A DNA stretch of 64,000 nt from an archaeon (GCA_043823195.1 JBDRAZ010000102.1:307-64306), one strand, 5' to 3'; shown: positions 38,720 to 50,303, numbered from the stretch's first letter. The notes: generated by a model not told the origin, from the letters alone. Numbers and translations: made by a program.

Positions 38720-38835
38720 GCAGTAAAGTAAGGCAAGGTACTATAAAAAGATTACATTTGTGAGAAAATTACGGAATTCGCAGCGACACTATTGTGGAAT
38801 ATACGCACTTGTGGTCAAATATAATAAGAGCCCAT

Positions 38836-38848
38836 CGTAATTATTACG
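38836..38848. promoter_or_regulatory. Palindromic operator candidate CGTAAT-T-ATTACG, 7 nt downstream of a TATA-like box
   Basis: Perfect 6-1-6 inverted repeat. TATA-like AAATATAATAA at 38818-38828. It lies 48 nt upstream of the PFK-like gene start. Confidence 0.55.
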
Positions 38849-38895
38849 TGTATCCCGAAAAGGGGTAACCAAGAAATCCGAGGAGGTCGAGTAAC

Positions 38896-40293
38896 ATGAG
38901 GCGAGTGGTTGTTGCTGTATGCGGTGGAGGAGGCAATGGCGCTAATGACGTTATGTATGCAATGGTCAGGTCACTTGGAAGGGGCTATGAGATCATTGGA
39001 GTCAAAAAGGCGTTTGAGGGTCTGCTCAGCCCAAATCTTGAAGCGGGGGGAATCGCAGTCAGGCTTACCCCCGAAGACCTCAGGCAGAGGATTTTCGATG
39101 AAGGGTCGATCCTCGGTCTGTCTCGTGAGCCGCCATATTTACGCGGAAAAGCAGAGGGAGATGAGCAAAGCGAATCGCAGACCCTCGATTCAATGCTGCT
39201 GGAGAGATTCCAACATAAGAAAGCGCAGCTGATGGGGGCGAACAACGGAGTTTCTGTGCGCAGGCTCAATAACAAAGAGAGAATCGAAAGAATCAGGCAT
39301 AATCTCCTCGACGTGCTTAAGGCCAACCTGTTCACTGTCATCGGGGGTGATGGAACCTACAGGAGCCTGGGAGAGTTCTTCAGTGACCCCGATGGCGCAT
39401 GGCTTGAGCGAATGACAATAGGCTGTCCAAACATAATGGATAATGATATTGCCTCGATGACCATGTTCGGCCAGACAGCCGCAAATCTATCACCGGGATA
39501 TTCATCCGCAGCCACTAAGCTGCTGAGATTCCATGAAAACCTCGTAAGCGTTGCACGGAACCATCAGAGGGTAATCCTACACGAAACATTCGGACGGCAC
39601 TGGGGCTGGGCAACAGCCATCCTGGACCTCGCCAATGCATCAAGCCTGGCCCTTCCGGAAAAGCCGTTTACATTCGATACGCTTGATGAACTGGCCAGGC
39701 GGATTGTGCACAATTACAGGACCTTTGGCTATGACACGGTAGGGATCGCCGAGGGATTGAGGTTCGGCAGGGATGTAGTTGATGTTGTAAAGAACATCCT
39801 TCCAGGCTACAAGTATTTCATGGAGACAGACGGATACTGCAGGGTTGGGCCTGCCCTGGGCCCGAATTCAAGAAAGCTTGGCGGAGCGGGCTACGTTGTT
39901 GAGAAGCTTCTCAATATGATGCTCGGTGACGAGATACCCATCAGGGTTGTGGCATCCAACTATACGCCAAGAGAAAAGGATCCCACGACCGGACTGGCAA
40001 TCAACCCCTATGATTTTAAATTCTGCTATGCTGCGGGTGAGTGTGTTGCAGGGATGGTGCGAGAGGAAATGGTCGGATTTATGCCACGGCTTGCCTCTGT
40101 CGTGGATTACCGGGGAATCAGGCCAGCAGCATTTGAGCAGTTTATGATTCGCGACACCCACCAGTCAGGCATTCCGGACGGGTTCCTGCCTGCAGGTCCA
40201 GTCTCACTGGAGGTCAAGCCGGTTTTCACTGATTATGTACGCATGATTACAGAAGGGCCAAGAAGGCCGGAGACTAAGATACTAGGCAGCTAG
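38896..40293 (+). CDS. Phosphofructokinase-family (PF00365-like) protein, paralog 1
   Basis: 'VIGGDGTYRS' (GGDG), 'GCPNIMDNDI' (TIDND-like) and 'HETFGRHWGW' (MGR-like). The N-terminal GGDAPG motif is degenerate ('CGGGGNGAND'). There is a ~60-aa charged insertion before GGDG. Confidence 0.7.
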   Translation: MRRVVVAVCGGGGNGANDVMYAMVRSLGRGYEIIGVKKAFEGLLSPNLEAGGIAVRLTPEDLRQRIFDEGSILGLSREPPYLRGKAEGDEQSESQTLDSMLLERFQHKKAQLMGANNGVSVRRLNNKERIERIRHNLLDVLKANLFTVIGGDGTYRSLGEFFSDPDGAWLERMTIGCPNIMDNDIASMTMFGQTAANLSPGYSSAATKLLRFHENLVSVARNHQRVILHETFGRHWGWATAILDLANASSLALPEKPFTFDTLDELARRIVHNYRTFGYDTVGIAEGLRFGRDVVDVVKNILPGYKYFMETDGYCRVGPALGPNSRKLGGAGYVVEKLLNMMLGDEIPIRVVASNYTPREKDPTTGLAINPYDFKFCYAAGECVAGMVREEMVGFMPRLASVVDYRGIRPAAFEQFMIRDTHQSGIPDGFLPAGPVSLEVKPVFTDYVRMITEGPRRPETKILGS

Positions 40294-40296
40294 ACC

Positions 40297-49254: not shown

Positions 49255-50176
49255 CCTCGAATAGATGATGGAGTATCTCAAGGCACTGCTCCATCTGGGT
49301 GAGGACGAACAGCTCTTCAGGCGGTACGGTCCTTATCGACCGGGTGAGCTTACGCACTACGTCCCAGCGCTTCTTCGAGAACCTGAGCATGTACTCATCT
49401 TCAGGCTTGAAGAAATATTGGTAATAGGTCTTAATCAGCTCCACAATATCCCCCAATATCTCGATGGATGTCTTGTTGAGCTTCTCGGGCTGCAGCTTCA
49501 GTATCCTGATAGCCACATATTTGCTGATGTCAAGCATGTCATCTATGCCCGAAAAGATGTAGTATAGAACGGGAATCTTACGGGGTTCCGGGTATTTTCC
49601 CTTGTTTAGGGACCGGATGAGATAGAAAATGAACTTGGTCACGTTGAAGTGCTTCTCATACATTGTCTCCAGAATGTTTCTGTCGTCTTTCTTAACTGCC
49701 TCATACAGCTCGTCATTGTAGTCCACAAAGAGCAGGAAGATCCTGCGCATCAGGTTGTCCAGGTCATCATGGTTGCCAAAGGTATAATCCTTGATTGTGC
49801 AGTGCTTTGACTTCTGATCAACTATCTCACAGCCAAGGAGCATGCCCACTTCGTGATTGATAACATCCATCACCGGCCTGTTTTTGCCTGACTTGAATTC
49901 GGGTGCATCCGGCCTATCGAACCTCAGCTCAATCTCATCATAGCCCACTTTGTATGCTGAGCGCATCCTGTGACGTATGGATGAATAATCCAGGCCATTG
50001 ATGTCAATGGTGATCTTCTTGGGCCGGTCTTCCGCCTCCTTGCCGATAATGATATTTTTCTCGCTCACCCGAAGGTCAAGCTCATCGCCCGGGCTGATTT
50101 TGTTGTCTGCTACCCATTTTGCAGGAAGTGTCAGGGTAAGTGTGTTGTGCCCCTGCCTGATCACCTTTCGCTTCAT
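49223..50176 (-). CDS. AbrB/SpoVT-PhoU fusion regulator, paralog 2
   Basis: 'MKRKVIRQGHNTLTLTLPAKWVADNKISPGDELDL' and 'DNLMRRIFLLFVD'. 32-nt convergent overlap with the ComB-like gene. Confidence 0.75.
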   Translation of the reverse strand: MKRKVIRQGHNTLTLTLPAKWVADNKISPGDELDLRVSEKNIIIGKEAEDRPKKITIDINGLDYSSIRHRMRSAYKVGYDEIELRFDRPDAPEFKSGKNRPVMDVINHEVGMLLGCEIVDQKSKHCTIKDYTFGNHDDLDNLMRRIFLLFVDYNDELYEAVKKDDRNILETMYEKHFNVTKFIFYLIRSLNKGKYPEPRKIPVLYYIFSGIDDMLDISKYVAIRILKLQPEKLNKTSIEILGDIVELIKTYYQYFFKPEDEYMLRFSKKRWDVVRKLTRSIRTVPPEELFVLTQMEQCLEILHHLFEARMSLNYCRQ

Positions 50177-50180
50177 TTTC

Positions 50181-50193
50181 CGTAATTAAAACG
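50181..50193. promoter_or_regulatory. Partial dyad CGTAAT-T-AAAACG between TATA-like box and the AbrB-PhoU paralog 2 start
   Basis: One perfect half-site plus a second half-site with 2 mismatches. It lies 5 nt from ATG 50176 and is flanked by ATGAATATATAAATA. Confidence 0.35.
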
Positions 50194-50290
50194 AATGAAT
50201 ATATAAATATTTCTATTCAATAGTGAAATAGTGATAAATATATTCCACTAGTGAACTCTATATTCATTATTGATTAATTTATTATAGCTT

Positions 50291-50303
50291 CGTGATAATT
50301 ACG
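50291..50303. promoter_or_regulatory. Operator candidate CGTGAT-A-ATTACG, 4 nt downstream of TTTATTATA and 8 nt upstream of the FGGY kinase ATG
   Basis: TATA-like box at 50278-50286. The geometry implies a leaderless or near-leaderless transcript. Confidence 0.5.

Follow-up and report, generated by a model that had tools for sequence, protein, structure and literature searches.

A candidate palindromic operator at three kinase operons of an uncultured archaeon and the two kinds of regulator encoded beside it

What is the palindrome CGTRAY-N-ATTACG that stands just downstream of the TATA boxes of three kinase operons in an archaeal genome, and which protein reads it? The palindrome, called the dyad below, occurs in a stretch of 64,000 nucleotides (nt) (GCA_043823195.1, JBDRAZ010000102.1:307-64306), which will be referred to as the window and is numbered from its first letter. 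An earlier note on this DNA had described it as a shared operator with degenerate copies at genes for AbrB-PhoU proteins (an AbrB-type DNA-binding domain joined to a PhoU-like domain; paralogs 1 to 3), and had named these proteins as the obvious regulators of a small regulon of kinases. Judged from sequence, the dyad is very probably a genuine transcription factor operator, and we lean towards repression as its mode of action. For a Lrp/AsnC protein encoded in the same island, which the note had overlooked, we see an even chance of being the binder. The analysed assembly, G000 (2.28 Mb, 119 contigs, 49% G+C, 93% complete), is the sole member of its family among the genomes compared, and its relatives stand at the level of the order.

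The three strong dyads were read directly from the sequence and lie where they had been reported, with the following elements around them:

38787-38794: CACTATTG, one mismatch away from the upstream palindrome CACTAGTG, in the PFK-like 1 promoter (found by a scan for CAMTAKTG and by promoter alignment)
38817-38827, + strand: TATA-like box AAATATAATAA of the PFK-like 1 operon, 8 nt to the dyad
38836-38848: dyad 1, CGTAATTATTACG, a perfect palindrome; the PFK-like 1 operon begins with the ATG at 38896, 47 nt further on
44340-44347: CACTAGTG palindrome of the PFK-like 2 promoter, 39 nt 5' of the dyad
44373-44380, + strand: TATA box TATATATA of the PFK-like 2 operon, 6 nt to the dyad
44387-44399: dyad 2, CGTGACTATTACG, PFK-like 2 operon
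50218-50233: CAATAGTG and AAATAGTG, which repeat ATAGTG directly at a distance of 8 nt, with near-identical sequence in genome G100
50246-50253: CACTAGTG palindrome of the FGGY kinase promoter, 37 nt 5' of the dyad
50278-50286, + strand: TATA box TTTATTATA of the FGGY kinase gene, 4 nt to the dyad
50291-50303: dyad 3, CGTGATAATTACG, 7 nt before the FGGY kinase ATG

The distances of 6 and 4 nt between TATA box and dyad reported for the second and third promoter were correct, and only the first had to be changed, from 7 to 8 nt. The words said to be shared by the two divergent intergenic regions are likewise present; the positions of CACTAGTG were right, and AAATATATTCC was located at 50236-50246 and at 44276-44286, the latter copy having been placed at about 44274-44284. 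Dyad 1 can also be written CGTAA-TTA-TTACG, a perfect 5-3-5 inverted repeat, from which the other two window sites each depart in one arm position.

To estimate chance, 200 dinucleotide-preserving shuffles were made of the non-coding DNA of G000, as delimited by a crude call of 2085 open reading frames that left 7.8% (175,379 nt) non-coding. The pattern CGTRAYNATTACG matches G000 at five distinct places, two of them coding (C27:31108 and C3:1253). The genome scan proposed as a check in the earlier note thus returned in non-coding DNA only the three window promoters, three matches against 0.03 expected; none of the 200 shuffles reached three, the maximum being one. Since the pattern was written after the sites were known, conservation in other genomes and a matrix derived from other genomes weigh more as independent checks. 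Such a matrix, derived from 16 sites that all lie in other genomes, ranked the window dyads as the top three in the non-coding DNA of G000, and its next matches in the window were the paralog 2 promoter (50181) and a box, CGTGATTAATACC, at 52956-52968. CACTAGTG alone is not significant in the non-coding DNA of G000 (2 observed, 1.0 expected; 51 of 200 shuffles reach 2), and its weight therefore comes from its fixed place 37-39 nt before the dyad and from its conservation across genomes, not from its count. CTAG is eight-fold under-represented in G000 (1138 versus about 8900), and 4 of the 16 non-coding G000 copies of the family CA[AC]TA[GT]TG lie inside the 917 non-coding bases of the island. 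Three other places considered as regulon members (C75:2675, C60:7821 and C16:142) were rejected as they have no TATA box at the right distance.

Related genomes keep the promoter layout, which argues for a real regulatory switch. Within about 60 base pairs (bp) the elements follow in the fixed order CACTAGTG, ATATATTC, TTGTGAT, TATA and dyad, the dyad forming the TATA-distal end. A composite scan for CACTAGTG-N(30-55)-GTRAYNRTYAC over 401 genomes of the order, with the reversed pattern as control, yielded eight matches in seven genomes compared to one control match. Six of them represent homologous AT-rich promoters, in G000 (twice), G026, G118, G148 and G238, five genomes of five families that hold the two-part layout in one order; the remaining two (G386, G203) fall in coding-like DNA and look like chance. 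When the six were aligned with the PFK-like 1 promoter, which carries CACTATTG, 21 columns were invariant, in the blocks CACTAKTG, ATATATTC, TTGTGAT, TATA and dyad. The spacers between the blocks vary, and the dyad sequence is constant across families. PFK-like 1 and PFK-like 2 are 29% identical over part of their length, and the genes that follow such promoters are either old paralogs or not related, so that recent duplication does not explain the shared 13-mer.

The comparison of orthologous promoters, also suggested earlier, found the dyad kept at a syntenic locus in G026 and in promoters of other relatives. The G026 operon comprises an unknown gene of 394 amino acids (aa), a 744-aa homolog of the 899- and 989-aa proteins of the window (E 2e-23 and 2.5e-21, respectively), ComB and a convergent AbrB-PhoU gene (40% identity). 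Its exact dyad CGTAATAATTACG lies 22 nt before the first start codon, and CACTAGTG 51 nt further upstream. In G118, G148 and G238, the layout precedes other genes. The designation as a regulon of kinases thus applies to G000 but not to the relatives, in which the first gene behind this promoter belongs to an unknown family. Useful single exact dyads in a promoter context were found in four of ten relatives scanned (G148, G139, G091, G070). A looser pattern applied to four genomes of family f5 gave fewer matches than the control, mostly coding.

Weaker copies of the dyad, and the genes of the candidate regulators, are found at the following places:

43263-44198, - strand: AbrB-PhoU paralog 1, 311 aa, convergent with operon 1 (4-nt overlap, 43263-43266)
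44203-44215, - strand: weak box of the paralog 1 promoter, CGCAAGCATTACA (gene strand TGTAATGCTTGCG), 3 mismatches, 5 nt after TTTATATAT
49223-50176, - strand: AbrB-PhoU paralog 2, 317 aa, convergent with operon 2 (32-nt overlap, 49223-49254)
50181-50193, - strand: degenerate dyad of the paralog 2 promoter, CGTAATTAAAACG (gene strand CGTTTTAATTACG), 5 nt after TTTATATAT
51895-51907, + strand: weak box CGTGAACACTAAG of the paralog 3 promoter, 2 nt after ATTATATATAT
51927-52802, + strand: AbrB-PhoU paralog 3, 291 aa
52956-52968, + strand: box CGTGATTAATACC before the Lrp/AsnC gene, 4 nt after the TATA-like GAATATAT, with the geometry of the strong dyads
53037-53492, + strand: Lrp/AsnC regulator of 151 aa with the recognition loop IPVTTIYD, heading its operon
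53533-54594, + strand: type II GAPDH, in the Lrp/AsnC operon

The copies at the AbrB-PhoU genes, including the CGTGA half-sites at 51895 and 51917 of the paralog 3 promoter, all read as the earlier note had given them. The true starts of the two divergent AbrB-PhoU genes are the ATG codons at 44198 and 50176, from which both proteins begin MKRKVIRQG; the weak boxes consequently lie 4-5 nt before the start codon and 5 nt after TTTATATAT. The box in front of the Lrp gene is a fourth site, missing from the earlier list, and it is kept as the same variant in G000 (CGTGATTAATACC), G148 (CGTAATTAATGCC) and G100 (CGTAATTAATACT).

With this box, the naming of the AbrB-PhoU proteins as obvious binders could not be upheld, as the conserved box also precedes the overlooked Lrp gene, the 13-bp 5-3-5 format is Lrp-like and an AbrB-type dimer covers about 10 bp. 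What stands of the shared operator is its placement between TATA box and gene, its restriction to the island in G000 and the degenerate copies at the AbrB-PhoU promoters; the regulator assignment in the form given does not. The Lrp protein is recognized by both of its domains (PF13404, 30.0 bits, cut-off 27; PF01037 (RAM), 26.9 bits, cut-off 25). In PMC2715240, eight archaeal Lrp proteins are described to bind 13-bp sites of the form abcdeWWWedcba; in the crystal complex of FL11 with DNA, the contacts involve the five outer bp of each half and spare the central three. The dyad resembles the Lrp/FFRP sites given there (FL11, Ss-LrpB, TvFL3, FL10, Ptr1/2 and LysM) in its 13-bp format: its invariant positions in the seven-promoter alignment span 12-13 bp. 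Its centre is mostly A/T, all three bases being so in 7 of 10 strong sites (from G000, G026, G148, G139, G118 and G070). As in those Lrp systems, the operator is placed beside the TATA box, the Lrp/AsnC gene belongs to the locus and its own promoter carries a box. The window Lrp has Ile24, Pro34, Val35, Thr36, Thr37 and Tyr39. Its aliphatic residues 24 and 35 fit the AA at positions d and e, a combination also reported in the same source for Ss-LrpB (Leu, Pro, Ile and Thr at positions 24, 34, 35 and 37; site with AA at d, e), and Thr37 fits C at position a as in FL11. Residue 39, Tyr, is absent from the published contact table.

The neighbourhood of the two regulators cannot decide between them, as this Lrp type was always found together with the AbrB-PhoU clade. 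The Lrp loop IP[VA]TT[IV]YD was also found in G074, G075, G026, G118, G139, G148, G038, G100, G134, G238, G161, G316, G044 and G131, with a near-variant (IPITTVHD) in G070. The window paralogs belong to one AbrB-PhoU clade with the N-terminal loop K-V-I-x-Q-G-[HN]-x-T-L-T (the QG-x-T-L-T clade), and every genome found with a Thr36-Thr37 Lrp also has this clade, often as divergent neighbour. Judged by identity, G044 seemed to have AbrB-PhoU alone, but a Lrp with the same recognition loop is present there; the AbrB-PhoU promoter of G044 carries no box. Nine distinct divergent pairs were recovered in sequence, and matching of coordinates in the homolog lists gave at least 24 genomes of the order with neighbouring genes for Lrp and AbrB-PhoU. 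Such neighbours are mostly divergent and 100-250 bp apart (loci include G118:C11, G148:C31, G100:C297, G087:C150, G059:C10, G016:C1, G147:C1, G109:C98 and G062:C86), and in the window they stand in tandem (51927-53492). Pairs of other clades, L059 (G087) and L064 (G147), have a different shared intergenic palindrome, TATATAATTATATA. Upstream of the Lrp orthologs of G026 (L044:11520-11560) and G038 (L052), TGCAATATTGCA palindromes occur in 2-3 copies; like CACTAGTG, they belong to the family CA[AC]TA[GT]TG.

A profile of presence and absence serves as a further argument for Lrp. In G119, G072 and G091 the AbrB-PhoU clade is accompanied, among the matches listed, only by a Lrp with a Ser36 loop; the box at the AbrB-PhoU promoter is missing in G072 and G091 and half present in G119, and G091 keeps CACTATTG. 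A shift of the site from CGT..ACG to TGT..ACA where the Lrp loop became Ser36 was also considered and dropped, as it was seen at three sites in one genus only. The leaning towards Lrp thus comes from the 13-bp abcdeWWWedcba format, the reach of about 10 bp of an AbrB-type dimer and the three-genome profile, all of which are weaker arguments.

The alternative closest to the earlier note is that the AbrB-PhoU paralogs themselves bind the dyad and repress the kinase operons and their own genes, the PhoU-like domain sensing phosphate or a phosphorylated sugar. We regard this as possible but doubtful. Every operon with a dyad has a paralog at its 3' end, and two of the paralogs are in addition divergent from the next operon. 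When the promoters of AbrB-PhoU genes were scored with the earlier note's pattern alone, a box-like sequence after the TATA box with at most 3 mismatches was present in 16 of 27 members of the QG-x-T-L-T clade versus 2 of 55 in the other clades, and CA[AC]TA[GT]TG within 130 nt upstream in 9 of 27 versus 1 of 55; these rows are relatives and not independent, and they include the window's three genes and loci of G131, G120 and G209 that are flagged unpublished (without the G131 locus the box count is 15 of 26). Several 4-mismatch matches in this scoring are a TFB recognition element (BRE) plus a TATA box. Against the AbrB-PhoU proteins as binders speaks the swapped-hairpin structure of VapB2 with DNA (PMC3326315), in which a dimer reads a 10-bp pseudo-palindrome in one widened major groove, compared to the 12-13 bp of the dyad; the 8 bp of CACTAGTG would suit a dimer of this kind better. 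Paralogs 1 and 2 are identical in their first 18 residues and could therefore not discriminate three operators, so that three regulators for one site look redundant; clade members of G026, G072 and G044 lack the box in their own promoters. In the literature searched on AbrB/SpoVT and PhoU in archaea, with most subscription journals outside its scope, no binding site was described for any AbrB-PhoU fusion, which in the accessible texts appears only as an annotated gene or a chromatin-associated protein.

An unlinked transcription factor, or a mixed assembly that needs both Lrp and AbrB-PhoU, would also account for the dyad, and the steady co-occurrence of the two proteins described above could reflect joint action. 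The promoters moreover contain no fewer than four conserved blocks, which exceeds what two simple sites would give. The restriction of the motif in G000 to the island that encodes these regulators nevertheless points to local factors, and among the 16 window proteins scanned no DNA-binding domain was found besides those of these regulators, which makes this explanation unlikely in our view. It is highly improbable that the dyad is no regulator site at all but a core-promoter or initiator variant, a leader RNA hairpin or a chance occurrence. The half-site CGTAA does resemble the BRE-like CGTAAA before many TATA boxes here, and the region is AT-rich. Nevertheless, the palindromic dyad is found in only three promoters genome-wide, far above the chance expectation, its sequence is kept across families while spacers vary, and it lies at the predicted spacing upstream of the start site; as RNA it would form only a 5-bp AT-rich stem.

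Several observations weigh against the view of the dyad as an operator for Lrp. By the published Lrp contacts, position b should be T with Thr36 but is G in the dyad, and the arms CGTAA/CGTGA match none of the eight sites described. One central base is C in 3 of the 10 strong sites (CTA in G000, CAA in G238, TCA in G091). In G091 (L084, C56:10953-10965), a TFB gene is preceded by the exact dyad CGTAATCATTACG, 1 nt behind its TATA box, although only a distant Lrp homolog (32% identity), not of the Thr36-Thr37 type, was found in this genome; this fits AbrB-PhoU as binder. The presence of a separate AbrB-PhoU paralog at the 3' end of every kinase operon fits local regulators, and autoregulation of AbrB-PhoU explains the box counts of the clades equally well as co-occurrence with Lrp. 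The promoter content also tracks the AbrB loop: the genes with a QGNG loop (L015/L125 in G100:C215, L128 in G310:C49 and L118 in G238:C9) have neither dyad nor CACTAGTG and share a different repeat, of TTGATATATTGATATATCA type, 5' of the TATA box. The profile argument involves three genomes, and relatives are not independent. Exact-dyad scans of the ten relatives gave counts no higher than the reversed-pattern control. The position of the dyad between TATA box and start site is predicted from spacing only, and a second TATA-like box, TTTTATATAG, is located at 44441-44450, 39 nt before the start codon of PFK-like 2. A second promoter for this operon is possible, as is a leader of 85 nt; a Shine-Dalgarno-like GAGGTGG is present in the leader at 44473.

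If the dyad is an operator, its place suggests how it could work. Archaeal operators in the interval after the TATA box usually block recruitment of RNA polymerase, examples being LrpA, MDR1, Phr and TrmBL1, and Pyrococcus furiosus LrpA reportedly represses downstream of the TATA box. At the FGGY gene, 7 nt separate the end of the dyad from the ATG and about 29 nt separate the TATA centre from it, which implies that the transcript is probably leaderless or near-leaderless and would place the dyad at roughly -17 to -5. A protein dimer on the dyad, putatively the helix-turn-helix dimer of the Lrp/AsnC protein (53037-53492), would leave room for TBP and TFB on the TATA box and block the polymerase, and the island of sugar-phosphate genes would be switched as one unit. 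The weaker copies in the promoters of the regulators could then provide auto- and cross-regulation. The AbrB-PhoU paralogs would more likely sit on the short CACTAGTG and ATAGTG elements 5' of the TATA box, with the PhoU-like bundle as a sensor independent of any Pst transporter.

A palindromic operator beside an archaeal TATA box that controls a small sugar regulon is a known kind of element, to which the Lrp operators and the Thermococcales glycolytic motif (TGM; TATCAC-N5-GTGATA, regulator TrmBL1/Tgr) come closest. Like the TGM, the dyad lies downstream of TATA boxes at sugar-kinase or glycolytic genes and would serve one small sugar regulon; the sequence differs, a second palindrome stands upstream here, and none of the 16 window proteins scanned reached the threshold of a TrmB family. 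Unlike in the described Lrp systems, the window type of Lrp was always found accompanied by AbrB-PhoU. New are the motif itself, its conserved two-part layout, found in a DPANN order without cultured members, and the regular occurrence of this Lrp type together with an AbrB-PhoU clade in a Pst-free genome. To our knowledge, next to nothing has been learned of how DPANN archaea, which cannot yet be grown alone, regulate their genes. With its defined candidate sites of 13 and 8 bp, its conserved promoter layout and the two proteins named as candidates, the locus could give the AbrB-PhoU family, or its Lrp partner, a first assigned operator.

The domain structure claimed for the AbrB-PhoU proteins is supported. 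The N-terminal domain PF04014 is found in all three paralogs (25.6, 31.7 and 34.5 bits; cut-off 24.7), and like the swapped-hairpin proteins of the AbrB/SpoVT/MazE/VapB type, a dimer of this domain should read a short palindrome such as CACTAGTG. Unlike in VapB2, an alpha/beta domain and a PhoU-like bundle are joined to it, and the genes do not belong to a toxin-antitoxin pair. By sequence, PF01895 (PhoU) stays below its cut-off of 23.5 bits, with a best score of 15.3 bits (E 0.026) for paralog 1 and no match for paralogs 2 and 3; a relative from G118 passes with 32.2 bits. An AlphaFold2 model of paralog 2, computed from a 10-sequence alignment (mean predicted local distance difference test score, pLDDT, 86.2), shows an N-terminal hairpin domain, which is modelled poorly, together with an alpha/beta domain and a bundle of six helices (137-314). 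In a Foldseek search with this model, all of the top 15 matches were PhoU or PhoU-like (target-normalised TM-score 0.49-0.72, best E 3.4e-4). A profile search of solved structures with the paralog sequences gave nothing significant, and NCBIfam holds no family for the three paralogs. The six-helix, two-repeat bundle is like that of PhoU of the PstSCAB system but, unlike PhoU, fused to a DNA-binding domain. The absence of pst transporter genes, noted before for the neighbourhood, extends to the whole (93% complete) assembly, in which TIGR02138 (PstC) had no match and none of 15 generic ABC matches of TIGR00972 (PstB) passed the cut-off; classical Pst coupling of these proteins is thus unlikely.

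AbrB-PhoU homologs (E 1e-10 or better) were detected in 112 of 151 genomes of the order, with seven copies in G000, and we know of no characterised AbrB-PhoU fusion in archaea. One reading, which we consider somewhat unlikely, is that these proteins, among the commonest predicted archaeal regulators, are Pst-free one-component sensors of phosphate or a phosphorylated metabolite (or are set by the neighbouring kinases) and act with a dedicated Lrp partner on CACTAGTG-plus-dyad promoters conserved in Woesearchaeales. If true, this would be a previously undescribed two-regulator metabolic switch. The locus could also show whether a PhoU domain works as a transcription sensor in a Pst-free genome. 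Among the best ten matches of a literature search for PhoU in DPANN/Woesearchaeota, there was no PhoU paper. A metagenome scan for close relatives of paralog 2 gave only three distant loci (21-32% identity), none of them a close ortholog of the kind that fine footprinting by comparison requires.

The operons behind the strong dyads contain the following genes:

38896-40293 and 40297-43266, + strand: operon 1, PFK-family protein and 989-aa protein without Pfam family
44489-45853 and 45854-48553, + strand: operon 2, PFK-family protein and 899-aa protein without Pfam family
48550-49254, + strand: third gene of operon 2, ComB-type 2-phosphosulfolactate phosphatase fold
50311-51819, + strand: FGGY-family sugar kinase, best NCBIfam match xylulokinase, below cut-off

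Public sequencing runs were also checked. No RNA run with DNA of the window was found among them, and two DNA runs mapped onto the window gave only short contigs identical to it, without strain variation or start sites.

Two further features of G000 came up in the scans of its non-coding DNA. The 16S rRNA gene starts at C60:8750 onward, and two 2-mismatch dyad matches scored as non-coding fall within or beside it. A repeat starting with CGTAATTCTTTAG, with two continuation variants, has 18 copies among the non-coding matches, on contigs C9, C35, C36, C46, C47, C48, C57, C58, C63, C64, C67, C78, C81, C103, C108 and C112. For many copies the distance to a contig end is about 125 nt; the repeat probably marks where a mobile element ends, one that interrupts the assembly.

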